Of a stretch of DNA of 25,925 nt, positions 2-16,889 are shown piece after piece. Every line of letters begins with the position of its first letter. The stretch's first letter is position 1. Origin of the DNA: an uncultured Rhodospirillaceae bacterium (lineage in GTDB: Bacteria; Pseudomonadota; Alphaproteobacteria; RF32; CAG-239); the NCBI GenBank assembly GCA_900313155.1, contig OMQE01000054.1:1-25925 (forward strand), in the 5' to 3' direction. The notes under the pieces were generated by a model. That model was not told where the DNA came from. It searched no databases and worked only from the letters and a program-made list of their open reading frames with translations. The position numbers were made by a program, and so were the translations under genes.

Positions 2-2020
2 AAAGGTTCCACATTCCAAATTGATGAAGCCACATCAGAGCTTTTAGAAGAAGCCTACGGTTTTGAGGTAAATTGCAACTATGCTATTATGACTGATGAT
101 AACGGCTCTTTTACTTGCTACCAAATCAATGAAGCTGATGGAGAAGCATTTAATAATGAAATAAAAAAAGAAATAGAAAGATCAAAAAAAATAGCAAATC
201 AGTCTATTTCAGAAACCTTATTAACCGGAGAGAATTGCATGGGTATATGCCTGTGGAATCAGTTAACTGGACTTATCGGTGGTGGTGCCATTGAAATTCT
301 GAAACAAACCGGTGCTCTAACTGCTTTTTCGTGCACAAAAGATAAATGCAACAAAAATGGAACAACCTACGAGCCGCTCGGGGCAGCAGTAGAAGGTCTG
401 GCTCAACGAGCTGAAAAATGTCGAGAAGACATGGAAAATACAGCGCAACAACGCGATAAAATGATTGCCAAACGCAAAGAAGCACACCAACTGCTTGATA
501 TTCTATCCGGTAATTTAGATGTGATGTGCACTTGCGAAATGCACGAGGTGAACGGCGTTCAGGAAGCAACCGGAAACATTCAAGAATGTGTTGCCTACGA
601 TCCGGAGTTTATGGAAGATAATATGGGCAGTTGTCCGACTATATCGGAATATCAAACTAAGATGATTGGGCAAGATAATCAGAAGTGTGTTATTTGCCGC
701 CTGTTTCACACTGTTTTAAAAGCTGTTCAAACTCTGGCGCAAAGAGCTTATGATGCATTAGCGCCGGCACTGATTTCATTATTAGGGATTGCATTTGGCA
801 TATATATTGCTTACTTAACTTTAATAACCATAGCCTCACCGGCAACGGCAAAAATCAGTGAATATTTAACCAAACTAACCACACAAGGGGCAAAAGTTGC
901 CATAGCCATCGCTTTGCTTTCTGCTCCGGGCTTTGTATATAGTACCTTTATTGGTCCTATAATAGATGGAGGTATTGATTTTGGCATTACTCTTGCCGGA
1001 GAAGAAAAAGCAGCCATTCAAGAAATGGGGGCAAAATTCGAATTTGATGCCGGTAACACCTACTTACAAACAGAAATACTGCAAAACACCGTCGGTGCAG
1101 CAGCTGCATTCAATAAGACAGCCATTCTAGTTCCATCTATTGGACGCTCCATGATGTGTAATGCATGGTATAATGATGACAGCTTGAAAAATCTCGTATC
1201 CGGCAGTTACCACTTTTTCCCGCGTATTCAAATGTGGTTAGAAGGCGCCATTCTCTACATATTCGGGCTAATGATTGCTTTTGCCGTTGGTTTTTATATG
1301 GTAGATTGTGCACTGCAACTTGGTGTTGTGTGCGCCATGATGCCGTTTTTTGTCGCCAGTTGGCCGTTCAAAATCACGAAAAGTTATACCAAACAGGGGT
1401 GGGATATTTTCTTAAATACCTTCTTTAACTTTGTGGTTATGGGAGTTGTTATCAGCGCCACTTCACAAATTATGACACAAGCTTTGTCAACCGGATTATC
1501 AATGCAAACACTGGAAACTCTCCTAGATAGCAATAAAGTTGATGAGCTGATGGAAGTTATTGACTTTGGCGGTTTGCAAATGGCTATGTTAGTTATTTGT
1601 TGTATGTTGGCACTGAAATTAAGCGGTGAAATTCAGAACATCACCAATAAGCTGTCCGGCGGTTTAGGAATTAGCGTTGGGGCAGAATTGGGTGGAACAT
1701 TAGGCGGATTGGTCAAAAAAGGTACTTTGGCGGCGGCCGGCGCAGCCGGCGTGGCTGCAGTTGCCAAAGGTGGGCAAATACTGGAAGCCTCAGGTGTTTC
1801 CGGTGCCGTTCGCTCAATGACCGGCGGGGCCAAAAACACCGCCACAGCCGCGGCCGGAGAAGCCGGCATGGGTTCTCAGGCTCAACAATCATCTTCAAGT
1901 AGCAGAGACCATGGACAACAAACACAATTCGGCGCCGGTGCTGAAAACAACGACAGTCCGGAAAACGACGAAAGTATCGATGAATCGAATGAAGAATCGG
2001 AAGACAACAACAGTGAATAG
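2..2020 (+). CDS. VirB6/TrbL-like type IV secretion inner-membrane protein, paralog 1 (5' end truncated by the window)
   Basis: The frame is open from base 2 through the listed ATG at 89, so the true start lies upstream. It has a Cys-rich N region ending in CVICRLF, two TM helices, FIGPIIDGGIDFG, a periplasmic loop with SIGRSMMCNAW, a multi-TM block (FYMVDCALQLGVVCAMMPFFVASWPFKITKSY) and a Gly/Ala-rich TrbL-like tail. Confidence 0.7.
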   Translation, partial: KGSTFQIDEATSELLEEAYGFEVNCNYAIMTDDNGSFTCYQINEADGEAFNNEIKKEIERSKKIANQSISETLLTGENCMGICLWNQLTGLIGGGAIEILKQTGALTAFSCTKDKCNKNGTTYEPLGAAVEGLAQRAEKCREDMENTAQQRDKMIAKRKEAHQLLDILSGNLDVMCTCEMHEVNGVQEATGNIQECVAYDPEFMEDNMGSCPTISEYQTKMIGQDNQKCVICRLFHTVLKAVQTLAQRAYDALAPALISLLGIAFGIYIAYLTLITIASPATAKISEYLTKLTTQGAKVAIAIALLSAPGFVYSTFIGPIIDGGIDFGITLAGEEKAAIQEMGAKFEFDAGNTYLQTEILQNTVGAAAAFNKTAILVPSIGRSMMCNAWYNDDSLKNLVSGSYHFFPRIQMWLEGAILYIFGLMIAFAVGFYMVDCALQLGVVCAMMPFFVASWPFKITKSYTKQGWDIFLNTFFNFVVMGVVISATSQIMTQALSTGLSMQTLETLLDSNKVDELMEVIDFGGLQMAMLVICCMLALKLSGEIQNITNKLSGGLGISVGAELGGTLGGLVKKGTLAAAGAAGVAAVAKGGQILEASGVSGAVRSMTGGAKNTATAAAGEAGMGSQAQQSSSSSRDHGQQTQFGAGAENNDSPENDESIDESNEESEDNNSE

Positions 2021-2030
2021 GAGGCAGTAA

Positions 2031-2255
2031 ATGAAATCGGTATTACTCTCATTTTTGATGTTCATTGTTGTTTTTACGGCGCTCAAATTTAACGTTTTAC
2101 GCATATTTGACCACCACATTATTGTATATGTTTCTTGGACGGCGTTTGTCATCGTTATCTTTTGCGCTCTGTATTTTATCGGCGCTCCCAAATGGCAAGG
2201 TGTCAAAAACGCTTTCAAAAAAAAGCCGGAGGAAAAAAATGATGAACAAAAATAA
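2031..2255 (+). CDS. Small 74-aa membrane protein (two predicted TM helices, Lys-rich tail), function unknown
   Basis: GGAGG RBS at 2020-2024 with ATG at 2031. It has two hydrophobic stretches, fills the gap between paralogs 1 and 2, and overlaps the start of paralog 2. Confidence 0.7.
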   Translation: MKSVLLSFLMFIVVFTALKFNVLRIFDHHIIVYVSWTAFVIVIFCALYFIGAPKWQGVKNAFKKKPEEKNDEQK

Positions 2256-4866
2256 GATAAAATATATTTTGTTTATATTCTGGCTGATTTGCTTTGTCGG
2301 AATGGCGCCATCTTTTGCGCTGGCTGTGGAAAATTCTGATTCTGCCACTTGCACCGAAGAACAGGTTAAAGAAATTGAAAAACACTTAAATCAAGCCGCT
2401 CTTGAAGGATTAAAAAATTCAAAAGCACTTCTGGATAATTACAATAAAATTGCCGAACAATACATTTCCGGATGTAATAAAAACGTTAATAAAGGAACAC
2501 CGGTATTTTGGTCAATGGACGCCTATCAAAGCGCCTACACCAAAGACCCCGGACTAGCCGATTCGCTTATGAAAGACCGTAGCCAATACCAATATACCGG
2601 TATTGTTTGGTCAGGCGAAACACCAACATCGGAAAATTGTAAAAATTTACGCAACAACGCAACTGCGGCATTAGATGCTTTTAACCGTTCACGCATAACC
2701 ACGTCGAACATGTTAGGTCGCGCCGGCGGACGAAAAGTGCCGAAAACCTGTATTTGTTCGGAGAACGCCGATGAACAGGAATGCGTTTCTTATGCTAACG
2801 AAGATAACGAACAACAAACAACAAAAGATGGCTGCCCGACATTTAATGAATATTTGGCAGACCTGACCTCTTGCCCGCTGTGTGTCATTTTTGAAGTTAT
2901 TTTAAACACCGACAGTGCGGTTGCTCATATTGCATGGGAAAAATTATCCGGCCCGCTTCAAGGCGTTGTTTCCATATTTTTCTTGGTATTTTTGGCTTTA
3001 GAAACTCTAAAAGTTGTCGCTAATATGGCCGGTTCTGGAACTTCGTCATATTTAAAAACCATTATCATACTCGGGTTTAAGGTTGCTATTGTTTTAATTT
3101 TGTTACAAGATTCAACCTATGTGTATGGCTATTTTATTTCCCCTGTTCTCAAGGGCGGTTTGGAAATGGGACAGGAATTTTTGCGAGCCGGTGCGGAAGA
3201 TGCCGGAGCTTGCCAAATAACCGGCACAACGTCTTTTGGTTCAATTCAGGGAAATGAGCTGGATTCTTCCATTTTGAGCAGTATTTTAGAAACAATCCGC
3301 TGTTTCAGCAATTCATCCTTAATAATGCCTTCAATCGGGCGTGCATTGATGTGTCATGGTTGGGAAAATGAAGGTTCTTTTTTAGGTATTCCTGATTTTG
3401 AAATGTGGTTTGCCGGCATCATTACCTATGTTTTCGGCCTCATGATTTGGTTGAGTGTCACATTCTATTTAATAGACTGCACGGTTCAATTGGGTATGGT
3501 CTGCGGATTAGTTCCGTTGTTTATTGCCTGCTGGCCGTTCAAAATGACACAACGCTACACCTCAACCGGCGTCAAAATGATACTGAACACATTTTTCACC
3601 TTTGTGTTAATGGGAATTGTGATGTTGGTGGGGATGGAAATTATCAGTTTTGCAATTTCCGGCGGTTCGAATCAGAGTGATGTTGCTTCTAAAATAGCTA
3701 TTTTAAACAGTTCCAACTTTAATATGGACAGACTTAAGAAAATGGTTTCTCTGGATAGTGAGGCAATTTTAATTTTGATTGCTTGCTGTATTATGGCGAT
3801 GAAACTCTTGGGTGTTGTTACCAGCGCTGCGGGTAAATTCTCTTCCGGCTCCGGCATGAATGTTGGTAGTAAAATGGGTGGCGCTGCCGGAACATTTACT
3901 AAAAATATTACCCTTGGAGCAGCTGCCGCTACATGGATTGGTGGGAAAGGCGCTCTTCGCAGTGCCGGAAATTACTTAGCCAACAATACCGATGTCGGGC
4001 GAGGTGTCGCAAATGGTTATAATCGTTTGAAAACCAGTGTCCGCAACTTCAAGTCTTCCATCAACCGTGAACTGACAGAAAATACACCAGCCGCACTCGG
4101 TGCCGCTATGGGGTTGGAACGTTTCCAACCGGAAAGACAGACAGAGATGCCGACCAATGAACAGGCAACGCGTCAACCAAATACGCCTAATACACCTAAA
4201 ACGCCAAACAATAATAATCATTCAAACCCGAATAATGCAGAAAATAAGCTAAATCCGGAACATCAAAAATTGATTGATAATGCAAAACAAAAATTTGATA
4301 ATTCGGATAAAGGTAAAAAACTACAAAATAATATAGATAAAGCCAAAGAAAATTATCTGAAAGCTGTTGAAGAGCACGGCAAAAACAGTGTTGAAGCTAA
4401 AGATGCAAGAGATAAATTGCGTGATGCTGTTGATGAAAGACGCGATGCCAAACATGATGCTATTGGCTCTTATTTAACGGAAAATGCGCAATCTTCCGGC
4501 GCTCATGGCACATATCTGAAGCAAATGAATTTGGAAAATCAGGCTCAACATGATCGTATTGCTCAAGCCAAGCAAGAAGTGGAAAATGACACGTATATGA
4601 AAAATATAGATAAACAAATCGCTGATACCGAAAATTGGAACAATACATTGGAGAGAGCTCACCAAATCAATCCTCAATTGGCTCAAGCAATTGAACAATC
4701 CACAGGTGGGGCTATCGGTCCATTACCTCAAGAAGAAATAACCCGCCGAACCGATGCTATGAAACAGGCTAAAGATGTACATATGTTGCACGAAATGCAA
4801 AACAAGCTCAGCGGAGCTGATTTTGAGAGATTTTTAACCTCATATCAACAAGGAGAAACGTTTTGA
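2239..4866 (+). CDS. VirB6/TrbL-like protein, paralog 2, with Cys-rich periplasmic N-domain and helical/coiled-coil cytoplasmic tail
   Basis: Start moved from 2065 to ATG 2239 (GGAGG at 2228-2232; signal peptide MMNKNKIKYILFIFWLICFVGMAPSFALA). Core motifs are CPLCVIF, FISPVLKGGLEMG, SIGRALMCHGW and FYLIDCTVQLGMVCGLVPLFIACWPFKMT, followed by a Gly-rich KMGGAAG segment. Confidence 0.72.
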   Translation: MMNKNKIKYILFIFWLICFVGMAPSFALAVENSDSATCTEEQVKEIEKHLNQAALEGLKNSKALLDNYNKIAEQYISGCNKNVNKGTPVFWSMDAYQSAYTKDPGLADSLMKDRSQYQYTGIVWSGETPTSENCKNLRNNATAALDAFNRSRITTSNMLGRAGGRKVPKTCICSENADEQECVSYANEDNEQQTTKDGCPTFNEYLADLTSCPLCVIFEVILNTDSAVAHIAWEKLSGPLQGVVSIFFLVFLALETLKVVANMAGSGTSSYLKTIIILGFKVAIVLILLQDSTYVYGYFISPVLKGGLEMGQEFLRAGAEDAGACQITGTTSFGSIQGNELDSSILSSILETIRCFSNSSLIMPSIGRALMCHGWENEGSFLGIPDFEMWFAGIITYVFGLMIWLSVTFYLIDCTVQLGMVCGLVPLFIACWPFKMTQRYTSTGVKMILNTFFTFVLMGIVMLVGMEIISFAISGGSNQSDVASKIAILNSSNFNMDRLKKMVSLDSEAILILIACCIMAMKLLGVVTSAAGKFSSGSGMNVGSKMGGAAGTFTKNITLGAAAATWIGGKGALRSAGNYLANNTDVGRGVANGYNRLKTSVRNFKSSINRELTENTPAALGAAMGLERFQPERQTEMPTNEQATRQPNTPNTPKTPNNNNHSNPNNAENKLNPEHQKLIDNAKQKFDNSDKGKKLQNNIDKAKENYLKAVEEHGKNSVEAKDARDKLRDAVDERRDAKHDAIGSYLTENAQSSGAHGTYLKQMNLENQAQHDRIAQAKQEVENDTYMKNIDKQIADTENWNNTLERAHQINPQLAQAIEQSTGGAIGPLPQEEITRRTDAMKQAKDVHMLHEMQNKLSGADFERFLTSYQQGETF

Positions 4867-4892
4867 CATACCACGCGAGATATAAGGCAAAT

Positions 4893-4937
4893 TTAACCAT
4901 ATTGTAATATTTATTTTTTAGAATTTATGTTACAATA
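4893..4937. promoter_or_regulatory. Putative regulatory site: CtrA-like box and imperfect inverted repeat in the only sizeable intergenic gap of the array
   Basis: TTAACCAT at 4893-4900, also readable as TTAA-N7-GTAA at 4893-4907. Inverted repeat TATTGTAATAT (4900-4910) / ATGTTACAATA (4927-4937) with one mismatch. A -10-like TACAAT lies at 4931-4936. Confidence 0.35.
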
Positions 4938-4980
4938 AAAACAAGGAACTAAAGGTAAAAACACGCAAGGACTGAAGCAA

Positions 4981-6363
4981 ATGAAAAAGACAGCGATATT
5001 ACATATATTAAGATGGCTTTGCTTGCTTTTATGTGCGTGTTTTTTACTATCGGCATGTTCAGAGAGTAGTAGTAGCAACACCCCAAGAGATCAAGGAACT
5101 TTTGTGACAACAAAAGAAGCCGGTGAAGATATTCAAAAAATTGCGCAATCTCATCATTCTTGCATAACCGGTTCTGTACTGAAAGTTATGTATCAAGATA
5201 TAGGCGCGATGACAACGGACGTATATAAGACATTGACATCTGAAAATTTGCTCTCTTTGGTGATTTTAGCTTTTACGATATGGATGGCATTTCAGATTTT
5301 ACAACATATTTCTTCTACCACGCCGGAGTCTATTGGGGAATTTTGGACCAAGGTCTTACGAAAAGGCGCTATTTGCACGGCCTGCGGCATATTAGCGTCT
5401 TCACCAGAAAATATTCTGTATGTCATTAACACCTTTATTTTTCCGGTATATGTCACCATTTTAGAATTTACAGCCGAGCTAATGAAGCATTTGGGCAGTA
5501 TGCCTGAAGCCAAAACCACTGCCATTAAGTTGCTTGGTTCAGATACTTGTGTGGAATTTGTGCATCGTATTGGCGAAGAATCATGTAGTTTTGACGGCAT
5601 GGATAAAGTGGAAATGACAACAGCCGGTTTTCCAACCCAGCCATTGGAACTGATGAGTTGCATGGCTTGCTCGGTTAGTGATAGACTATCTATGGGGTGG
5701 GATATAGGTTTGAGAACCATGATTTCTGTCAACCCAACTGCTTGGATAGCCGGTTTTTTCATACTGGGAATTTTCTTTATTACCAGAATAAGCTTTGCAT
5801 TGTACCTTATAGACAGTATTTTCCGCTTAAATATGATGATAATCATTATGCCGTTTTTAATAATGTTCTATCCGTTTGAACAAACCCGAAAATGGTCAGT
5901 TAAAGGTTTTCAAATTATCCTCAGTTCGGCGGCTATTATGATGTGTATCAGCCTTGTTGTGGTCATGACCGTTTTTGCCATGGAAAAACTACTGATAGAT
6001 AAAAGCTCACGCATTCCATATGGTGACCCTGAACAATATATGAACTTCGGCATTATTGCCATGTCTTTGCTCTTTATGGCATTGATTGTTAAGCAAGCCT
6101 GCTCTATGGGCGTAGAACTTGCCGGTCGTGTCACCGGTTACAGCGGCGACACCAACTTTTCTAAAAATATCAAGTCAATCATTCAATGGGTCGGGCAAAT
6201 CGGCATGGCCGCACTCACATTTGGCGCCAGTTATGTTTGGTATCGAGCGTACAAACATATTGAACTCGTTCGCAAAGCCCAACAAGCTTATGAAAAGGCT
6301 AAAAATAAGGCAGAAAATGCCATGGCTAGTATTAATCATGCCGCCGGACGAGACAGAGAGTGA
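4981..6363 (+). CDS. VirB6/TrbL-like protein, paralog 3, compact lipoprotein form
   Basis: Lipobox LSA-C26 followed by a Ser-rich linker. The core is homologous to the other paralogs (CITG in place of CxxC, FIFPVY, FALYLIDSIFRLNMMIIIMPFLIMFYPFEQTRKWS), with a short C-terminal tail. Confidence 0.68.
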   Translation: MKKTAILHILRWLCLLLCACFLLSACSESSSSNTPRDQGTFVTTKEAGEDIQKIAQSHHSCITGSVLKVMYQDIGAMTTDVYKTLTSENLLSLVILAFTIWMAFQILQHISSTTPESIGEFWTKVLRKGAICTACGILASSPENILYVINTFIFPVYVTILEFTAELMKHLGSMPEAKTTAIKLLGSDTCVEFVHRIGEESCSFDGMDKVEMTTAGFPTQPLELMSCMACSVSDRLSMGWDIGLRTMISVNPTAWIAGFFILGIFFITRISFALYLIDSIFRLNMMIIIMPFLIMFYPFEQTRKWSVKGFQIILSSAAIMMCISLVVVMTVFAMEKLLIDKSSRIPYGDPEQYMNFGIIAMSLLFMALIVKQACSMGVELAGRVTGYSGDTNFSKNIKSIIQWVGQIGMAALTFGASYVWYRAYKHIELVRKAQQAYEKAKNKAENAMASINHAAGRDRE

Positions 6364-6370
6364 GGCCGCC

Positions 6371-7081
6371 ATGATGAAATTGTTTGAAATACAGAAAAAC
6401 TTTTTGATCATCATCACCCTAACTTTGTCACTGACATTTGTTGCAACACCAGTGTGGGCTCAAGCCGAATATGGTGATGTTGTTCAAACAATGACCGAAC
6501 GCAACGAATATAACGGACAAGATTATAATGGAGCACAAACAACATCTCTAACTCCAACCAATGATATTGCCCAAAGAAATACTTATAAAGGTATGGATGC
6601 CAATGGCGCTATCATAGATGTTAAAAATGTTGGTAAACTATATGATGATAAATATAACAAAAAAGCCTGTTCAATAGAAGCCATCCGAAAAGACTTTTTA
6701 GACGGCGCAACTGCCAAAAATTGTTGGTATTGTAATATTGTCAGCACCATGACCAACTCGTTTTTAACTGCCGTTGCGGAATCTAACGGTATTGTTCAAA
6801 CACTGGCCTTACTGATTTTGCGCTACGGCTTTTTGATATGGTTGGCTTATTATATATTGCAACAAGTCAGCTCTTTGGCACCTATTAAAACAACCAAAAT
6901 GTTGCAAGATATTTTAATGATGGGTTTCAAAGTTCTACTTGCCACATTAGCCGTTCGTCAAGGCATCCCGCTCTTAACCGAATTTTTCATAGATCCGGTG
7001 ATGTTGCTTGGCGTTGACTATGGACAAGAAATGCTCGACGGCCTCCTTGCCGCTAACATCAAAAGCGGAGGTGCCTCATGA
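6371..7081 (+). CDS. N-terminal half of a split VirB6-like unit (signal peptide, periplasmic domain, CxxC, two TM helices)
   Basis: Start moved from 6119 to ATG 6371 (GAGG at 6362-6365; signal peptide ending VWA-QA). It contains CWYCNIV, two TMs and FIDPVMLLGVDYG, which match the first half of the other paralogs, and then stops. The stop overlaps the next start (ATGA at 7078-7081). Confidence 0.7.
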   Translation: MMKLFEIQKNFLIIITLTLSLTFVATPVWAQAEYGDVVQTMTERNEYNGQDYNGAQTTSLTPTNDIAQRNTYKGMDANGAIIDVKNVGKLYDDKYNKKACSIEAIRKDFLDGATAKNCWYCNIVSTMTNSFLTAVAESNGIVQTLALLILRYGFLIWLAYYILQQVSSLAPIKTTKMLQDILMMGFKVLLATLAVRQGIPLLTEFFIDPVMLLGVDYGQEMLDGLLAANIKSGGAS

Positions 7082-9483
7082 AAAAATTTTCATTTAAACA
7101 CCTCGCCTATATTGCTCTAACAGCTATAGTTTTGAGTCTGCCGGCATTTGCCGGTCGCTATGCCGCTCATAACGACTATATGTTGGCAACTGTTTTGTGG
7201 CACGAAATTCGTGGCGGTTCCGATATGGAAATAAAGCAAGTTGCAAATGTAATCATGAATCGTTTAGATATGTTCGAAGGAAACAGCAAAGACGGCTATC
7301 AGCTTGAGCTTGGCGATATCTTAACCGCAAAAGCGCAATTTTCCGGTAGCGAAAAATATCTCAATGCCCGCATGACAGACCAAGACATTTTAAAACATGT
7401 CAATCTCCATGGTAGCGAAGGTGTTGCTTGGAAACGTTGTTTAAATATTGCGCAACAAGCTCTTGCCGGACAACTGCCTGATTTAACTCACGGAGCAACC
7501 CATTATCGCACATGCACCGGTCCAAACATGACCTTCTGGGGTGCCTCTAAAATAAATGGTGTGTCTCACGGGAAACATTGCTTCTTTAAAGGCATCAATA
7601 TGGGCTCCATGAAAGTTAACGGCCATACATTCAAACAAGGTAAAGTTTCCGGAAAATACAGCAAAGGCGGTGCTTATGTCGATAATGGCGGAGGTGGTTC
7701 GGGCGAAGGCTCGGGTGATTGGAGTTCATATAGTGGTGGTGAAAAAACATTTGGCAGTAACTATGTTGAAGGCAGTGGCGGATTTACTGATTTAACTTTT
7801 TCTGAAACAGAATACACCGCCATGTGCGAAACCGCTAAAACCGAAACAGACGGTTCGACAACACCGCCAAATTTGTTCAATACACAAATTTTGACCCGTA
7901 TGACGCAAATGATGGAGAAAATATATATTTCTCTTGGACAGGTTTATGCGTTAGGACAAGCCTTGATGTGTTTTGCAACCGATGTTGCTCCACTCAAATT
8001 TTTGGCATTTAAGTTTGTAAATGTGCCTTATTGGATTACCGGTCTATTTATTTACTTATGTGCTTTCTTCATCACCATGGCTGTGGGAATGTTCTTTATT
8101 GATATTTCCTTCAAAATCGGATTTGCCTTATTGATGCTTCCTATCAGCATTGCCTTATGGCCTTTTGAACCGACAAAAGGCAAATTGAGCGAGAATTTTT
8201 CCATCATCATCCGTAACTCCATGCTTTTTGCGCTGGTTTCGGTTGGTATTGGCTATGCGGTCATTTTGCTTGAAAATGGCGTCACGCATGGCATGGACGA
8301 AGTTGCATATTATAATGCTTTTTATAACTCGTATAGCGCATTAGATATAGCAAAAGAATTTGCCATGAGTGGCGTCCATGTTTTGATTATTGTATTTTGC
8401 CTCATCTACGGTTTTAAAATTATTCAATCCAGCATCAATGATTATCTCAACCGCCTGTTTCCGGATAATGTGTTCGGCGGTCAAAGTCCTATGCATACTC
8501 AAGGTGTTCAAGCCATTGGTACAACAGCCATGCACACGGTTCTGCCGGCAGCATCTTTGGCTTATGATATTACCAAAAATCAAGCCGGTCGAGGCATAGA
8601 GGCACTTGGTCGTGGTATGCAAAATATCGGTAAATCGCCATCAGCTCCAACACCAATGCCTGTAACAGGAGGCGGTTCAGGTCCAACAGGTCCTGGTCAG
8701 CCGACAGGTTATCAGTCAGACGAAAACCCTATTGAATCGGAAACTGCCGAAAGTTCTGCAGAGGATATCTTACCAACAACAGAAACTCCTATTGCGGAAA
8801 ATAATAGCAACGACCAACCTGTTGAAACGCCACAACAAATGGCTTCACGGCAGACAAATCCTGCGTCTCAACCTGAAAACGAACAAGCATTTAATGCCGG
8901 CGTTGCACCAACCTCGCCGACACCAAACAATGGTGGACTAAGTGCGGCCTTGCAAGCCGGTATGTCTCTCGGGCAACAAGACAAGGTGGAAAACTACTCT
9001 CTGTCACCGGGGAATTTGCTGAAAAACACTGCAAATACAACGTTGAATATCTTAACGGCGCCGCTCAATGCCAAAACCTATAAGCAGTTGATGCAACTTC
9101 CGCAAATTATGGAAAAGCGCAACCAAAATGCCGCAATGCGGCAAAAACAACGCGATGCTCAAGAAAACGCCGCAATGCCTAATGCCACAAACGGACAAAA
9201 AATTGTGATGCGTCTTTCACGCGATGCAACTTTGTTTGTCCGCACAGCCAAGCAAACCGTGAAAAATACCGGTGTTGAGACTCTGAATTCAACAGGCTCG
9301 CTTTTAGAAAAATTTGGCAGTAAAATTCGTCCGACCAAAGGAGGAACGAAAGGTTTTGAGTATTGGCGTCAATGGATAAAAGATCGCGAAGACGAAAGGA
9401 TAGCCCAAAAAATAGCTGAAAAAGATCAGCGTGAAACAGATGAAACTTTGGCAGACGACTATGTTGACCGTGGTAATGGATAA
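7078..9483 (+). CDS. SleB-like (Hydrolase_2) cell-wall hydrolase fused to the C-terminal half of a VirB6-like unit
   Basis: Own RBS (GGAGGT at 7067-7072) and signal peptide (..LPAFA). Bases ~7171-7593 encode LATVLWHEIRG...VANVIMNR...AQFS...AWKRCLNIAQQALAGQLPDLTHGATHY...HCFF, the SleB pattern, with the catalytic Glu codon at 7204. A Gly/Ser linker follows, then ALGQALMCFA and the TM block FFIDISFKIGFALLMLPISIALWPFEPTK, then a Pro/Thr/Gln-rich tail. Confidence 0.78.
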   Translation: MKKFSFKHLAYIALTAIVLSLPAFAGRYAAHNDYMLATVLWHEIRGGSDMEIKQVANVIMNRLDMFEGNSKDGYQLELGDILTAKAQFSGSEKYLNARMTDQDILKHVNLHGSEGVAWKRCLNIAQQALAGQLPDLTHGATHYRTCTGPNMTFWGASKINGVSHGKHCFFKGINMGSMKVNGHTFKQGKVSGKYSKGGAYVDNGGGGSGEGSGDWSSYSGGEKTFGSNYVEGSGGFTDLTFSETEYTAMCETAKTETDGSTTPPNLFNTQILTRMTQMMEKIYISLGQVYALGQALMCFATDVAPLKFLAFKFVNVPYWITGLFIYLCAFFITMAVGMFFIDISFKIGFALLMLPISIALWPFEPTKGKLSENFSIIIRNSMLFALVSVGIGYAVILLENGVTHGMDEVAYYNAFYNSYSALDIAKEFAMSGVHVLIIVFCLIYGFKIIQSSINDYLNRLFPDNVFGGQSPMHTQGVQAIGTTAMHTVLPAASLAYDITKNQAGRGIEALGRGMQNIGKSPSAPTPMPVTGGGSGPTGPGQPTGYQSDENPIESETAESSAEDILPTTETPIAENNSNDQPVETPQQMASRQTNPASQPENEQAFNAGVAPTSPTPNNGGLSAALQAGMSLGQQDKVENYSLSPGNLLKNTANTTLNILTAPLNAKTYKQLMQLPQIMEKRNQNAAMRQKQRDAQENAAMPNATNGQKIVMRLSRDATLFVRTAKQTVKNTGVETLNSTGSLLEKFGSKIRPTKGGTKGFEYWRQWIKDREDERIAQKIAEKDQRETDETLADDYVDRGNG

Positions 9484-9499
9484 TATAAGGAACAAACAG

Positions 9500-12400
9500 A
9501 TGAACAAGAACGTATTGAAAATATGTATTTTTATTCTGACAACCTTTATTGGTATGTCGGCGTTCGGTTGCTCTGTTTATGCAGCTGAAAATCAATCCTG
9601 TTCCGGTAATTGTTCTGCCGCAAATAAATGCAAACCGGCCAGAAACGGCTTTTCATATGTTACCACTTCATCCAGTAATGTCATTAACGGCAAATGTATC
9701 AAAGATGCAACAGCTAACAGTTGCTACAATGCCAATCCGACCAGCTGTTCCGGTTCATATAACGGTTTAGGCAGTCGCGGTTCTTCACGCAACCACTACG
9801 GAAGCGATATTGGTAGCGCCGCATGCGGTGCGGCAAAAGGAAAAATACAGGTTTATGCACCTGCCGATGGAACTATTGTTTGGACAGGCGTCTCTTCAGG
9901 CGGCGGCCGAACAATGGTGATTGAGCACGAAAAGAAATGCTCCGGCGGCGGAAAATATAAGACAATATTCAGACATTTAGCCGCTTACATTAAAACCGGT
10001 GGCTCTGTCAAAAAAAATGAGCCGGTTGGCATTGAAGGCGGTTCTAACTGCTACAATAAAAGTGCCGGTGACGCTTGTATTTGTGATAATAAGGAACAAA
10101 GCGTCGGCAAAGTTTATAGCGGTTGCAGCAAAGTCCATGCCTATGCTATTCACCTACACATGGAAACGGTAAACAGTGGATTTAATGGTTCTAATTATTC
10201 CGGTGGCGAAGCAGATAATGTATTAGAAACTTCCTGCGGAGCCGTTCAAACACTTTGCGGCGGTTGCCCGATTGACACAACTTCTTGCGGCGGGAAAATG
10301 GAAATGACCAGCGATGGCACCGTTGCCTCTATGGACGGTATTGAGGGCGGTTCCGAGGGCGGTGATTTCGGTGCCGGTGGCAGTGGCGAATACAAAAGCG
10401 ATAAGTGCGATTTTAAAGAGTATCTCGATTCGCAAAATTGCACCTTCTGCGAAGTGTTTAAAAAGCTTTGGAACGCCGCCAGTATTATGGCAAAAACCGC
10501 TAATGATACTTTGGCAACGCCTACCAAAACATTGGTTTCCTTCGGATTCGTTATCTGGCTTTGTATATACCTCTTGAGGCAATTGACGTCATATTCCAAA
10601 GTTAGCACGGCAGAAATGCTCAAAGGCATATTGTTCCAAGGTTTCCGTGTGGCGGTGGTGCTTATTGCCTTAAGCGGCGCCATTTATGAGCTGATGGATT
10701 TAACCATCAACCCCGTGTTAGAAACAGGGTTGAGCTTTGGGCGAACACTGAACAAAGATGCCTCTTGCGACAGTAACGCAAGCTACATGCAAAACATTGT
10801 CGGCTACGACGAAACAACGGGCTTTCCTAGACCGGAAGACGGCACCAGCGACCAAATCGGCGGACTTTCGAAACATTTGGGTGAATCAATTATATGCAAC
10901 CTGAAAACCTTAGAAGATAAAACCGGATTTTTAATGTCTTTGGGCAAATACTCCATTTGTATAGGTTGGGAGCGTCACTTTATTTTAAGCAGAGAATTTT
11001 TACCCGGACTGGGCTATTTTTCCACCGGTATATTATTGTGGATAACCGGTTTATTGTTGCTGTTATCATTCCCATGGTGTTTGGTAGATTGTATTCTACA
11101 ACTCTGCATTTCCGTTGCGCTTTTACCATGCGCTATTGGGGCTTATGCCTTCAAAATTACGGCACAATATTTGAAAATGATATGGAATATGTTTATGAAC
11201 GCCATATTCAACTTTGTCTTTATGGCCATTATTATATACATTATCAACGCCCACCTTGGCGATTGGATTGGCTACACCCCGGGAACCGCCCCTCAAGACG
11301 AGATATTTATTACCGGTTATCTATCCGCAAATGGTTTGGCTTGGTGGGGATTGGGCTTTGTTAAAATAGTCATTGTCTGCGTGTTTTGTTGGACCTTCTT
11401 TGACGAGGCAAGTTCAATGGCTAATGAATTTGGCAAGGGTATGAGTCTGCACAATATCGGTCGCAAGCTGGGTGGAACTGTTAATCAAGCAGCGCTAAAC
11501 TATGGCGTTAAACCGGGAGCAATTGTTGCCGGCAATTTAGCACTGGGCACCGGCAGACGTATCGGCGAAGCCGTTAATTCACGCTATGGCAACAGCTTCC
11601 GTAGCGGCGTTAACAAACTTAAAGGCGAAGTCATTAAACGTATACCGGCACGTTCACGCAACACAGTGACTAATCCGGACGGTTCAACCAGCACAACCGC
11701 AACATACAGTTTTCTCGGTTTTGAACAAACCAGAACCGTGACAAAAGGTGCTGATGGTATTTATACCCATAGCAAAGAAACACACCGCAAAAATGACCAA
11801 TTCGGCACACGTTCAACTAATGATGCCTTTATGCAAATTAAAGAAAAAACCGATAAAAACGGCAAAGTTGTCGGTCGTTCCATTAAGTTTAATAACACCA
11901 CCGCCAAATATTTGGTCAAAGATGACGGCACCATCAATATGCACGCCATGCAACAAATGATTAACGGCGCCGAAAACAAAGAACGCGCCTATGAAGGGAT
12001 TATGTTGATGGTGGCACAAAAACGCGGTCTTTCTGTGAGCGAAAACTTCCAAAACCGTGAGGTGAAAATTAATCCTGATAAATCAGTAACCATTTCGCAA
12101 ACCAATTTGGACGGCACTCAGCAAATTCTTACGGCTCAAATGATTGGTAACCAAATGGTGCTTTCTCAACAAAGTTTTGACCGCAAGGGTAATCCTATCA
12201 GATTTCAAAAATCAAACGGCGTCCGCACGTTAACCGAAACTTATGAACGCCGCGCTGACGGCACCTATTTGGCATCCATTCGCCACGGTTTCACCGATTA
12301 TTGGCAGTCAAAAGATATTTTAACCGAAGAAAACGGCGTTGGTGAATGGCGTTTCAGATACGATTCGAACATGGATGCTCAAAAAGCCATGACCGGCTTT

Positions 12401-13222
12401 GATAAAAACGACTTTGATGAACATATGGCGCAAATGCAACATGCACGCCGAACCAGACACGATAGAATGCCGAAAAACTATATCTCACTGGATAATTTAT
12501 CGGCTGATGCCGTGATGGCAAGAATGGGAAATAAAAGAATGGCTACACCGACCCCTGTTACTCCACAACCTGCGCCTACCTCTCCAACACCGGAAACACT
12601 ACAAACAGGAACGTTGAATTCCTTTGATGCAACCCAGGAACGTACTGAAGTAGAACAGCCTCGGCAACCGGAAAAAACTGAAAACAATTTCATTATTGAT
12701 AAGAATGATAAAGGCGAGATAATAACATATAGTCTGGAAGAAGCGCAAAAATGGGAAGAAGCTGAACGTCAAGCGCAAGAAAACCAAAATCGCATTCAGG
12801 CAGAAAAAGATACAAGACACCGGCAAAATCAGGAAGCCCGTAAAAAACGTGAAGAACAAATTCGTGAAGCTGCCGAAGATGAAAGAAAACGTGTTGAAAC
12901 TAATAAGGAAAATAAAAAGAAATTAGAAGAAGAAACTACTAAACGTGTAGAAAAGAGAGAGGAATACAAAGCTCAATTACGTGATTTACAAGAAAAATTA
13001 CGTAATGCGAGAGAGATAGCTCAGTCTTCCGGCAAACCTGAAGATATCAAATTCTACAATGAACTTAAGGCTAAAACAGAAGAAACCAGAACAAAATTAA
13101 CCAACATTCTAAAAGACTACGAAGAGCAAAGAAATCGCTATAACAGAGCTGTTGAAGAACATAATGCTCGCGTTGCCAATAAATCAGAAACTAAAGAGGT
13201 TGATACTGGAAACAAGGTATAG
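9500..13222 (+). CDS. M23 (LytM-type) metallopeptidase fused N-terminally to a complete VirB6-like unit with a long cytoplasmic tail
   Basis: Start moved from 9431 to ATG 9500 (AAGGA RBS; signal peptide). M23 motifs: HYGSD (HxxxD, codon 9794), VYAPADGTIV, GGRTMVIEH, FRHL and HLH (codon 10151). A Gly linker leads to CTFCEVF, INPVLETGLSFG, SLGKYSICIGW and LVDCILQLCISVALLPCAIGAYAFKIT. The protein ends in a charged coiled coil. Confidence 0.8.
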   Translation: MNKNVLKICIFILTTFIGMSAFGCSVYAAENQSCSGNCSAANKCKPARNGFSYVTTSSSNVINGKCIKDATANSCYNANPTSCSGSYNGLGSRGSSRNHYGSDIGSAACGAAKGKIQVYAPADGTIVWTGVSSGGGRTMVIEHEKKCSGGGKYKTIFRHLAAYIKTGGSVKKNEPVGIEGGSNCYNKSAGDACICDNKEQSVGKVYSGCSKVHAYAIHLHMETVNSGFNGSNYSGGEADNVLETSCGAVQTLCGGCPIDTTSCGGKMEMTSDGTVASMDGIEGGSEGGDFGAGGSGEYKSDKCDFKEYLDSQNCTFCEVFKKLWNAASIMAKTANDTLATPTKTLVSFGFVIWLCIYLLRQLTSYSKVSTAEMLKGILFQGFRVAVVLIALSGAIYELMDLTINPVLETGLSFGRTLNKDASCDSNASYMQNIVGYDETTGFPRPEDGTSDQIGGLSKHLGESIICNLKTLEDKTGFLMSLGKYSICIGWERHFILSREFLPGLGYFSTGILLWITGLLLLLSFPWCLVDCILQLCISVALLPCAIGAYAFKITAQYLKMIWNMFMNAIFNFVFMAIIIYIINAHLGDWIGYTPGTAPQDEIFITGYLSANGLAWWGLGFVKIVIVCVFCWTFFDEASSMANEFGKGMSLHNIGRKLGGTVNQAALNYGVKPGAIVAGNLALGTGRRIGEAVNSRYGNSFRSGVNKLKGEVIKRIPARSRNTVTNPDGSTSTTATYSFLGFEQTRTVTKGADGIYTHSKETHRKNDQFGTRSTNDAFMQIKEKTDKNGKVVGRSIKFNNTTAKYLVKDDGTINMHAMQQMINGAENKERAYEGIMLMVAQKRGLSVSENFQNREVKINPDKSVTISQTNLDGTQQILTAQMIGNQMVLSQQSFDRKGNPIRFQKSNGVRTLTETYERRADGTYLASIRHGFTDYWQSKDILTEENGVGEWRFRYDSNMDAQKAMTGFDKNDFDEHMAQMQHARRTRHDRMPKNYISLDNLSADAVMARMGNKRMATPTPVTPQPAPTSPTPETLQTGTLNSFDATQERTEVEQPRQPEKTENNFIIDKNDKGEIITYSLEEAQKWEEAERQAQENQNRIQAEKDTRHRQNQEARKKREEQIREAAEDERKRVETNKENKKKLEEETTKRVEKREEYKAQLRDLQEKLRNAREIAQSSGKPEDIKFYNELKAKTEETRTKLTNILKDYEEQRNRYNRAVEEHNARVANKSETKEVDTGNKV

Positions 13223-14387: not shown

Positions 14388-16889
14388 GTGGCAGAGGAAA
14401 AACTGACGGAAGCAAATCAGCAACAAACAGAAGAAGAGAACCCGATTCTGGTTGCTCAACGCTACCTGAATATTTATCACCAAATCCATATATTCCCGCC
14501 GGAAAAAAGAGAAGAATTTGCGGCATCTCTTAAAAGTATGCCGGCACCAATCCGTCATATTTTACCGTCAATTCCGGGCGGACGGGCGCTCTTGGATCAT
14601 ATCTTGGAACTAGAGGGAATCCAAAAGAAAGATTATGCTGAAAACACCGGCTTACTGCAACAGGAAGAAACTCAAACATCAAAATCGCCGGAAAGCGTTG
14701 TTAATGTTCCGGTTGTAGCCTCTGGTAAAATCAGTTTAGATCCGGATTTTGCTCGTAATTTGGCGGGTTCGCTGGCAACAGCTTTCAAAAACAATAATCT
14801 GATGCCGGGAGGAAACTTAAACGAATTATCCAATGTATTGAGCAAATCGTTCAATGCTTATGCGAACAATATGCAACAAATGACTGAGACTATTCTCTCA
14901 CAAAACATTGAACAACTCAATCGCTCGCAGTCCGAATTGCAGGAACACATCAAAACTCAACTCAATATGCAAAATGAGTTGCAAAGCAAAGTGGCAGAGC
15001 AATTAAATACACAACTCAATAAACAAACCGAATTACAAAATAAGGTTACTGAGCAACTCAATAATCAACTGATTAAACAAGGTGAATTGCAAAATAAAAT
15101 CACCGAACAGGTAGGCGAACAAATCAGCCAAGTTCAAAACCGATTGAACACTCAAATCGGGAAACAATTGGATTGGCAAAACAAAATGCAATCTCAATTT
15201 GAACAAAATATGAGTTTGCAAAACCAATTACAGCAAAAAATTCAAAGCCAAATAACTGCACAATCTGCCAGCATTAGTGCCGAAGCTGTTCCTGTTGGAA
15301 CCATTCCGCATGCTGCAGCGCAGATGAATGCGCAAACCAACAACGCCAATACAACCACAATTAACAACATTAATGTGGATTCGTCGTGTTTTAACGGCAT
15401 AACACAAACATTGCGTGAAACGGAAGAAAAGCGTCGTGCCGATTTTCAGAAAATTATTGAAGTTTTGAACAAAAATTTTGCGACAAATAAAAATCAAAAA
15501 ACTCAAGAATTACCTGTTTCCGCCATAACCAACTCCATTACCGAAGCTCTGCGTGAAAACAGCAAACAGCAACTTGCGGCCATTAAGGCCTTTGGTGAAA
15601 CATTATCCCAAACTATTCGGCAATCACAACAAGAACTGGCTAAAACTTTAAGCAAAACCAATTCTCAGCCGGAAAAAATATATATCACCCAAACGGCACC
15701 AACACCTGTTGAAAAAGAAACTTCAAAGCCTTCGCAAGCTCAACTTCAATCTCAGACCAAGGCAGAAAAAAGAAAAGACAAGACGGAGCAAAAATCTCAA
15801 AATCAGCAAAAGAAAAATGCCGAGCAACCTTTAGCACAAAAAACGCCGAAAACGGATAATCAAACGCAAAACAAATCTAAAGAATTACCTAATCCGGCAG
15901 ATAAAGACTTAGACTTTGAAAAAGCCTTTGAAATTGACAATTTGAAAGATGAGGAAAATATTTCTCTTGATGATATTTTTGCCAATAGTCTAGAGCCGGA
16001 TTTAGCCAAAGCATTTTCCGAACCAACTAAAAAACAGCCTCCTCTGCCTGAAAAAAAGAAATCGGCAGAAAAATTACCCAATGAAACCCAAAAAACAGAT
16101 GATTTTCTAAATGCTTTTACAAAAACGGAACCAAAATCCGCACCACAAAAAACTAAACCGCAACCCCAAAAACCTGCAGAACCGGAACATAAAAAAGATA
16201 TAAAACAAGAACAACCGCCAAAACCTAAACCACATTCGCATCTGTATGATGATGCCATGCTCAAAATTAAAGAAGCTTTACAATCGTCCGAAACAGTTGC
16301 TTTAGATGATTTAGATGATGTTCGACCTGTTTCTTTGGTTGACAACATGCCTGAACCGGAGCCGGAACAACAAGAACCGACATACATTGATACACCTCTG
16401 GATGATAGTTTTTTGAACGCATTTGAAGGACAAGAAAAAGAAAACACTGACGAGTGGGAATATGTTGACGAGAACGACAATCCCATTGAAGCAAGCGATA
16501 CCGACGAGTGGGAATATGTTGACGAAGACGGCACCCCCGTTGAAGCAAGCGATACCGACGAGTGGGAATATGTTGACGAGAACGGCAACCCCGTTGAAGC
16601 AAGCGATACCGACGAGTGGGAATATGTTGACGAGAACGGCAACCCCGTTGAAGCAAGCGATACTGACGAGTGGGAATATGTTGACGAGAACGGCAACCCC
16701 GTTGAGGCAAAAGATACTGACGAGTGGGAATACGTTGACGAGAACGGCAACCCTGTTGAAGCAAGCGATACTAACGAGTGGGAATATGTTGACGAGAACG
16801 GCAACCCCGTTGCGAAAGATGATGAACTAATGAATGCTTTTAGCGAAAATCAAACGACATCTGAGAAAGAAAATAAAGATGATAAATAG
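14388..16889 (+). CDS. Hypothetical 833-aa cytoplasmic protein: small folded N-domain, Gln-rich coiled coil, Pro/Lys/Glu-rich disordered region, acidic C-terminal tandem repeats
   Basis: GTG start with AAGGA RBS at 14376-14380. No signal peptide or TM helix is evident. The repeats are read directly from the translation. Confidence 0.8.
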   Translation: MAEEKLTEANQQQTEEENPILVAQRYLNIYHQIHIFPPEKREEFAASLKSMPAPIRHILPSIPGGRALLDHILELEGIQKKDYAENTGLLQQEETQTSKSPESVVNVPVVASGKISLDPDFARNLAGSLATAFKNNNLMPGGNLNELSNVLSKSFNAYANNMQQMTETILSQNIEQLNRSQSELQEHIKTQLNMQNELQSKVAEQLNTQLNKQTELQNKVTEQLNNQLIKQGELQNKITEQVGEQISQVQNRLNTQIGKQLDWQNKMQSQFEQNMSLQNQLQQKIQSQITAQSASISAEAVPVGTIPHAAAQMNAQTNNANTTTINNINVDSSCFNGITQTLRETEEKRRADFQKIIEVLNKNFATNKNQKTQELPVSAITNSITEALRENSKQQLAAIKAFGETLSQTIRQSQQELAKTLSKTNSQPEKIYITQTAPTPVEKETSKPSQAQLQSQTKAEKRKDKTEQKSQNQQKKNAEQPLAQKTPKTDNQTQNKSKELPNPADKDLDFEKAFEIDNLKDEENISLDDIFANSLEPDLAKAFSEPTKKQPPLPEKKKSAEKLPNETQKTDDFLNAFTKTEPKSAPQKTKPQPQKPAEPEHKKDIKQEQPPKPKPHSHLYDDAMLKIKEALQSSETVALDDLDDVRPVSLVDNMPEPEPEQQEPTYIDTPLDDSFLNAFEGQEKENTDEWEYVDENDNPIEASDTDEWEYVDEDGTPVEASDTDEWEYVDENGNPVEASDTDEWEYVDENGNPVEASDTDEWEYVDENGNPVEAKDTDEWEYVDENGNPVEASDTNEWEYVDENGNPVAKDDELMNAFSENQTTSEKENKDDK
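14934..15260 (+). repeat. Degenerate ~18-residue Gln-rich coiled-coil repeats (ELQxKVxEQLNxQLxKQx) within the 833-aa protein
   Basis: ELQSKVAEQLNTQLNKQT, ELQNKVTEQLNNQLIKQG and ELQNKITEQ..., plus weaker flanking copies. End points are approximate. Confidence 0.65.
16446..16811 (+). repeat. In-frame tandem repeat of 54 nt (18 aa, TDEWEYVDENGNPVEASD), six full copies plus a seventh partial copy
   Basis: Units start at 16446, 16500, 16554, 16608, 16662, 16716 and 16770. The central copies are nearly identical at the nucleotide level. Confidence 0.95.

Follow-up and report, generated by a model that had tools for sequence, protein, structure and literature searches.

The 25,925-nucleotide (nt) window analysed here, the forward strand of contig OMQE01000054.1 (assembly GCA_900313155.1), derives from an uncultured Alphaproteobacterium of ruminant guts, the related records of which are metagenome-assembled genomes (MAGs) from rumen, deer, sheep, yak, horse and human gut. 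At positions 2-13222 we found an array of VirB6/TrbL-like genes arranged in tandem on one strand. It has five members, here called p1 to p5, of which the fourth, p4, is split into two adjacent genes on the plus strand (6371-7081 and 7078-9483). With a probability that we put at roughly 0.6, these are two coupled genes, one of them bearing a SleB domain, whose products re-associate into a single VirB6-like subunit that opens the cell's own peptidoglycan near the type IV secretion system (T4SS). Under this reading, the front half would contribute the two helices that anchor the protein in the membrane, preceded by a signal peptide and a small periplasmic stub containing Cys, and the back half, exported via a signal peptide of its own, would give the remaining VirB6 fold and a long tail. 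The two translationally coupled genes would thus make two Sec-exported chains that rebuild one VirB6-like subunit, broken in the coil joining the anchor helices to the stalk-forming helices. In this genus, a SleB domain with an intact catalytic Glu would have been joined, via a flexible linker rich in Gly, to the free N-terminus that the back half has in the periplasm and, in a derived clade, transferred to the N-terminus of the front half. The linker may let SleB reach the sacculus near the base of the stalk and open the peptidoglycan there locally, a role that would be VirB1-like but carried out by another enzyme family tethered to VirB6.

The conserved two-gene split is a real, functional design, and neither an error nor a pseudogene. 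We collected the locus from 20 genomes of the same genus and from 41 species-level genomes by a conserved-motif scan (the two sets overlap), and p4 was split in 42 of 42 related genomes, the front core and the back core never being present in one open reading frame (ORF). Wherever both halves were on one contig, they were adjacent and in the same order. Ratios of nonsynonymous to synonymous substitution (dN/dS) were 0.06-0.28 for both halves in species pairs; dS was saturated in most pairs, and the least saturated pair (dS 0.8-0.9) gave 0.13 and 0.09. Other genera of the family have the two-gene design as well, with front halves of about 170-310 amino acids (aa), an ATGA overlap, a GGAGG site and a back-half signal peptide, and no hydrolase was found on either half in the split genes of those genera.

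At the junction, the ATG of the back-half gene (7078-7080) overlaps the TGA of the front-half gene (7079-7081), giving ATGA at 7078-7081, and a GGAGGT ribosome-binding site for the back-half gene lies within the end of the front-half gene (7067-7072). As read from the sequence, the overlap is one of translational coupling. It was likewise present in three relatives (L013, L107 and L108), and a GGAG-type site precedes the back-half start in relatives too. Across the relatives, the junctions consist of either an ATGA overlap or a GGAG-bearing spacer of 2-20 nt, and the two genes occur in each of the three possible relative frames; the front gene always ends 10-40 residues past its DYG motif, and the leader of the next gene is always rich in Lys/Arg, then hydrophobic and then followed by AxA, even when SleB is absent. 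In addition, a gene for a 155-aa signal-peptide protein with no recognised domain lies between the halves in L069 (2542-3009), and about 500 nt separate them in L059. Contigs spanning 7044-7110 from independent studies had no indel or substitution at 7070-7090; three other studies, on bovine and ovine samples, had yielded these contigs, one of which represents a strain about 2% diverged.

The initial annotation of this DNA, made from the letters alone, had read 6371-9483 as a VirB6-like gene split in its periplasmic loop after the second membrane helix, and as a functional two-gene design rather than a frameshift. The features that it had listed there (CxxC, helices, motif, ATGA, GGAGGT, signal peptides, SleB and linker) all lay where it had placed them. 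The position of the break was confirmed by the profile matches described below, and the two-gene design is borne out by the conserved split, the variable junctions, the purifying selection and the absence of an indel. A fused ORF in relatives, which would have spoken for an error, was found in none of the 42 genomes, and the independent contigs gave an indel-free reading of 7070-7090. As for the conservation of the split point and of the ATGA overlap, the split was present everywhere, but ATGA is not universal, being replaced elsewhere by the spacers of 2-20 nt.

The two halves together cover one VirB6-like protein. When compared with a profile of 105 unsplit members of the family (A5), the front half matched profile positions 21-152 (E 2.6e-32; nt 6644-7051) and the back half matched positions 153-420 (E 1.6e-62), tiling the profile with neither gap nor overlap. 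Agreement of this kind lies far beyond chance, and the layout was met again in dozens of genomes. In a MAFFT alignment with the window's paralogs, ALGQALMC of the back half was aligned with SIGRALMC and SIGRSMMC of the intact paralogs. A profile of the C-terminal core (C-core) had no match among PDB sequences, and the VirB6 fold was therefore examined by structure prediction and Foldseek, using an unsplit relative. In G025, a genome of a sister family in the same order, a p1/2-like gene, a p3-like gene, a 479-aa unsplit gene, a p5-like gene and a helix-turn-helix (HTH) regulator follow one another, making the 479-aa protein the unsplit positional counterpart of p4 by p3-p4-p5-HTH synteny. We considered it as a strict p4 ortholog and rejected this, since in the C-core tree it lies on a long branch and is not part of the p4 clade; it was kept as a structural reference only. 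The AlphaFold2 (AF2) model of this protein, built with 104 homologs from a full-library HMMER search, had a predicted local distance difference test score (pLDDT) of 79.8 and a predicted template modelling score (pTM) of 0.71. Its nine best PDB matches were all TrwI/VirB6 chains of the R388 stalk (8RT9_F, 8RTD_L and 7O3V chains), with E-values down to 2e-4, a probability of 1.0 in all but the ninth (0.95), and template modelling (TM) scores of 0.50-0.61 on the target, a fold match obtained on the unsplit relative and not on the two chains together.

The same model locates the break in the fold. The window's front half corresponds to residues 58-166 of the G025 protein, ungapped, and the back half to residues 177-453; residues 164-181, between helix 141-163 and helix 182-214, form the longest coil of the confident core, and the chain break falls at this coil. 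VirB6 of R388 has seven long helices, of which alpha1 and alpha2 alone lie in the inner membrane and the rest form the base of the periplasmic pentameric stalk (PMC9259494). By comparison with the modelled relative, the two front-half helices would be the counterpart of alpha1/alpha2, and the natural break would separate the membrane 'legs' from the 'dome'. Nearly invariant Cys residues of the family number three before the break and one after it, and this 3+1 pattern would allow an inter-chain disulfide.

The front-half gene (6371-7081) encodes 236 aa: a signal peptide, a Cys-bearing periplasmic stub, a CxxC, two membrane helices and a FIDPV...DYG helix before the stop. The signal peptide, MMKLFEIQKNFLIIITLTLSLTFVATPVWA/QA (aa 1-30, 6371-6460), was predicted by reading the sequence and by a hydropathy scan. 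Cys100 is present in the periplasmic stub, and the CxxC, here CWYC (aa 118-121, 6722-6733), stands just before the first membrane helix. The two hydrophobic helices (aa 141-159 and 177-195, within 6791-6955) were placed by hydropathy and by alignment to the modelled unsplit relative, and the motif FIDPVMLLGVDYG follows at aa 206-218, with the stop codon 18 residues on. CWYC was invariant in 17 of 17 aligned front-half orthologs, and the equivalent Cys residues are nearly invariant family-wide in profile A5. The front half is the most conserved part of the split protein, its core sharing 35-67% identity across 17 species, with C5, C23, W24, Y25 and C26 invariant.

The back-half gene (7078-9483) encodes 801 aa that begin with a second predicted signal peptide, MKKFSFKHLAYIALTAIVLSLPAFA/G (7078-7152; AFA/G at aa 25/26, from sequence and hydropathy), and continue with a domain of the SleB/CwlJ type (Hydrolase_2, 7159-7629), a Gly/Ser-rich linker, the remaining VirB6 helices and a long hydrophilic tail. 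The linker between SleB and the VirB6 core (7666-7866) is likely to be flexible, judging from its composition and from a pLDDT below 50 at aa 197-275. The VirB6 core resumes, according to profile A5, at 7813-8628 with a loop helix containing the invariant Cys298 (ALMC), a beta-hairpin and hydrophobic helices. The C-terminal tail (8629-9480) is of the 'extended VirB6' type and was modelled mostly at low confidence, its extreme C-terminus being conserved.

The assignment of the N-terminal domain to SleB, already proposed in the initial annotation, is upheld by Pfam, by a PDB profile search, by the predicted fold and by an invariant Glu. The Hydrolase_2 family (PF07486) matched aa 54-170 with an E-value of 5.7e-9 and 37.0 bits (gathering cut-off 27). 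A PDB search with the single 801-aa sequence gave no match, the SleB match being obtained with a profile of the domain, for which the best PDB sequences were Bacillus SleB 4FET/4F55 (22% identity, E 0.003). AF2 modelled the SleB region of the 801-aa chain with confidence (pLDDT about 80-90 over aa 30-190), and the top two Foldseek matches were 4FET_B and 4FET_A (probability 1.0, TM 0.66-0.67, 154 columns); their E-value of 0.045 is modest because the 801-aa query is mostly of low confidence. The putative catalytic residue, Glu43 (7204-7206), lies in a WHEIRGG motif that aligned to YGESRGE of 4FET. It was invariant in 28 orthologs and is also kept in the front-half copies of SleB, and the domain is under purifying selection. 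An SLT domain (PF01464) was searched for in the 801-aa protein with Pfam and not matched; SleB is not of the SLT family, and a VirB1-like role would therefore be an analogy only.

The position of SleB varies within the window's genus, with the domain being present on the back half in 23 genomes, fused N-terminally to the front half in 15 and absent from two. In a tree of the concatenated core, the front-half-SleB and SleB-free layouts fell into one clade beside a basal grade of the back-half layout, and in a tree of the SleB domain the VirB6-fused copies formed one clade, with the front-half copies nested within the back-half copies, in agreement with the core tree. Based on these two trees, SleB was most likely acquired once, on the back half, and appears to have moved once to the front half and to have been lost once, with the split kept throughout; the back-half layout is apparently the older arrangement. 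A stand-alone SleB-like gene of about 150 aa was also present in each family genome (e.g. G000:C43:1720-2199, locus L079), in a clade separate from the fused copies. In one locus (L056:5215-6393), an in-frame stop between the SleB part and the front-half core may represent a three-piece arrangement, a sequencing error or decay.

Beyond the genus, the split and the hydrolase are found apart. Among 151 genomes sampled from the family, long open frames with a SleB match were confined to the window's genus, which, together with the hydrolase-free split genera, indicates that the split either predates the SleB graft or is unconnected with it. We also considered whether a SleB gene, inserted together with its signal peptide, had given rise to the split, and rejected this as a general cause because of these same genera. 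The initial annotation had further inferred that the split frees an N-terminus to hold the hydrolase above the channel; as a reason for the split, this was not supported by the comparison: some split genera have no hydrolase, and the domain is on the front half in 15 genomes and missing from two. Nor is the split needed to hold a hydrolase, since unsplit relatives have M23 or SLT in the same loop without any break. For example, among unsplit genes of the same paralog clade, M23 was located in the very loop of the window's break in P0111, P0147 and L085 (in the last, the gene at 5920-8508 occupies the p4 position of a syntenic array), a GDSL lipase plus SLT in the loop of P0114 (1661 aa), and SLT at the N-terminus of P0051. 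A break is thus not required for docking, and the loop and the two periplasmic N-termini are a recurrent docking site for hydrolases. An insert of about 300 aa in the loop was observed in about 27 of the 150 best family representatives, most of those scanned giving no Pfam match. The deep nodes of the C-core tree, which bear on the order of fission and re-fusion across the family, had support of only 81-83% by the Shimodaira-Hasegawa-like approximate likelihood ratio test (SH-aLRT).

Several explanations other than a rebuilt, hydrolase-bearing subunit were weighed. One might suspect a frameshift introduced by assembly or sequencing, recent decay into a pseudogene, or programmed frameshifting that yields one long protein, given that the ORFs are in different frames and share four bases and that a strain-specific split of virB6d is known in Rickettsia bellii OSU 85-389 (PMC2653234). 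However, the split of p4 extends to all 42 genomes and to other genera besides, its spacers differ and its frame offsets take all three values; the junction is free of indels in independent assemblies, including the 2%-diverged strain; dN/dS is well under 1 on both sides; a read-through product would hold an internal signal peptide; and a gene intervenes in L069. The conserved split, varied junctions, low dN/dS and indel-free contigs exclude assembly error, recent decay and programmed frameshifting for practical purposes. It is unlikely, although still to be taken seriously, that the halves no longer cooperate. In that case the back half would act alone, either as a hydrolase anchored in the membrane or as a stalk protein resembling VirB6, and the front half would have turned into a small membrane protein in its own right, such as one that recruits pilin or acts like a chaperone. 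Such independence would agree with the separate signal peptide and start of each half, with the possible presence of an unrelated gene between them (L069) and with the anchoring of R388 VirB6 through alpha1 and alpha2 only, the rest being stalk, so that the modules are physically distinct (PMC9259494), but adjacency and order are kept wherever both halves are on a contig, ATGA coupling is retained in distant lineages, and the front half is the most conserved part, with an odd count of invariant periplasmic Cys residues that fits the 3+1 pattern across the break.

Two further alternatives concern the enzyme. That the tethered hydrolase acts on the wall of another cell, a recipient or a prey, with the VirB6 stalk carrying it outward, is improbable. 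The variety of wall-degrading domains on this paralog across lineages (SleB, M23, SLT and GDSL) has the look of an arms race, and parts of other extended VirB6 proteins, such as TraG of F, are thought to reach the recipient; on the other hand, the enzyme is Sec-exported and covalently tied by a linker of about 70 residues to an inner-membrane/stalk protein, and no immunity-like gene is evident beside the enzyme gene. Still less probable is a catalytically dead SleB domain that serves as a peptidoglycan-binding anchor and positions the machine: although its similarity to characterised SleB is weak (22% identity, E 0.003 by profile) and the domain is dispensable in some species, every fused copy, whichever half it is on, has the Glu of the catalytic motif, and the domain is under purifying selection. 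Frameshifting or decay, as set out above, is the least probable of all.

A number of observations weigh against two coupled chains that rebuild one SleB-bearing VirB6 subunit. Two species of the genus and whole sister genera have the split without a hydrolase, and the enzyme is therefore dispensable for the split protein. A stand-alone SLT protein of about 205 aa is present in 38 of 41 genus genomes, so that a VirB1-type enzyme may already be available and the SleB graft would be an addition rather than a replacement. SleB as a substitute for a missing VirB1 was accordingly rejected: the window's genome, 83% complete, had no SLT match, but 38 of 41 genus genomes have SLT. Neither half matched Pfam TrbL (PF04610) at E<=0.01. 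Among 20 aligned C-core sequences, in which back-half orthologs were mixed with unsplit paralogs, TrbL matched 12 (best 6e-12), the window's own C-core not being one of them; each half appears to cover just part of the TrbL domain, and VirB6 membership is drawn from paralogs, profiles and predicted fold. The back-half core, modelled without its partner, was only moderately confident (pLDDT about 55-65). Finally, the array adjoins neither virB4 nor other T4SS genes, VirB4 being on a separate contig, and the gene upstream of it in G011 is Lon-like.

More tentatively, we suggest that VirB6 proteins consist of two modules, legs and dome, joined by a hinge that tolerates a permanent break and is a preferred docking point for wall-cutting enzymes. 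The fourth paralog might then be a built-in peptidoglycan drill across this gut-Alphaproteobacteria family, and the domains fitted to it at different times (SleB, M23, SLT or GDSL plus SLT) would occupy either the hinge or a free end; the split forms and the unsplit forms with an insert may interconvert by fission and fusion.

The other members of the array are on the same strand as p4. They include p1 (2-2020; VirB6/TrbL-like, truncated by the start of the window), p2 (about 2236-4866; Pfam TrbL E 3.6e-10, 40.4 bits, cut-off 25.9), p3 (4981-6363; Pfam TrbL match) and p5 (9431-13222), a 1263-aa VirB6-like protein with Peptidase_M23. In p5, a full-length VirB6 core bears the M23 domain (aa 121-206, E 2.3e-7) at its N-terminal end in the periplasm, and a 1146-aa protein at the p5 position of L107 has the same layout of M23 and VirB6. 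In the window's genome (1.15 Mb, 83% complete), no VirB6-like genes were found outside the array with the profile of 105 unsplit family members. T4SS core genes of this genome were found on other contigs, namely VirB4 on C153, TrbI/VirB10 on C107 and VirD4 on C168 and C45; the TrbI/VirB10 domain (G000:C107:12338-12934) lies inside a 1395-aa open frame, far above the usual length of VirB10.

On its 3' side, the array gives way to a double-HTH regulator, followed by a large acidic repeat protein, a number of unassigned genes and an N-type ATPase operon. The repeat protein (14388-16889, 833 aa), directly 3' of the HTH regulator, contains Gln-rich repeats and seven copies of the acidic repeat TDEWEYVDENGNPVEAS, and L085 and L107 likewise have a large protein at this position. 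The ATPase operon (20435-25923) encodes beta, epsilon, an AtpQ-like ATPase_gene1 protein, AtpR, a, possibly c, b/delta and alpha. Upstream of the array in L085, L107 and L108 are genes for a lipoprotein of about 145 aa, a protein of about 282 aa and a two-helix membrane protein of about 63 aa, a conserved trio located at L085:313-1890, L107:375-1935, L108:220-1764 and L076:11903-13237. The protein of about 282 aa is DUF676 esterase-like in G025, and that of about 63 aa might be a pilin- or VirB3-like component.

Comparison with known systems places split p4 within the VirB6 family. TrwI/VirB6 of conjugative T4SS (R388; PDB 7O3V, 8RT9 and 8RTD) has the fold of the unsplit relative, with an N-terminal helix pair and then long, partly hydrophobic helices, but is one chain of about 340 aa without an enzyme, whereas split p4 is broken after the anchor helices and has a signal peptide on each piece and, in addition, a hydrolase, a tail of 340 aa and a periplasmic stub rich in Cys. 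RvhB6a-e of Rickettsiales and VirB6-1 to VirB6-4 of Anaplasma/Ehrlichia resemble the array in forming four or five tandem VirB6 genes with large hydrophilic extensions; in Rickettsiales, such extended paralogs are in tandem and the T4SS genes are scattered over the chromosome (PMC2653234; PMC12857230). Like rvh loci, which are recognised by at least four tandem VirB6 paralogs with large extensions, the array comprises p1, p2, p3, split p4 and p5; unlike them, it is not directly downstream of virB3-virB4. In addition, neither hydrolase domains nor a conserved split have been described in the Rickettsiales arrays, and the lineages here are free gut and rumen MAG lineages of Alphaproteobacteria. 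The split virB6d of R. bellii OSU 85-389 is strain-specific (PMC2653234), and it was the only case that we found in the literature, where neither a VirB6-hydrolase fusion nor a conserved split VirB6 was encountered.

A wall-cutting enzyme dedicated to a T4SS is itself well known, in the form of VirB1 and the VirB1-like proteins of Gram-positive bacteria (PrgK, TraG of pIP501 and TcpG). Gram-negative VirB1 is soluble and periplasmic, and the Gram-positive hydrolases are membrane-tethered and can combine SLT, CHAP and LytM domains (PMC12857230). VirB1 is, however, a separate protein of the SLT family, whereas the domain in p4 is a Hydrolase_2/SleB domain within a VirB6 polypeptide, the likeness being one of function and not of family membership. 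With SleB of Bacillus, the spore-cortex lytic transglycosylase (4FET and 4F55), this domain shares the catalytic fold, the Glu motif and the Pfam family, but it is only about 22% identical, is not in a spore context, has no N-terminal peptidoglycan-binding domain of the Bacillus type and is fused to a secretion-system membrane protein. According to a 2025 review, the roles of the extra domains in 'extended VirB6' proteins are unknown (PMC12857230); one class of these additions can now be recognised as hydrolases of peptidoglycan. They come from no fewer than three unrelated families, and each is located either at one and the same hinge or at a terminus emerging from it. The natural break amounts to an evolutionary experiment showing that the anchor and stalk parts can be separate, separately exported chains, offers a simple design for split-VirB6 experiments in model systems and suggests where the peptidoglycan layer meets the stalk. 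Split p4 with SleB is a new architecture within the known VirB6 family.

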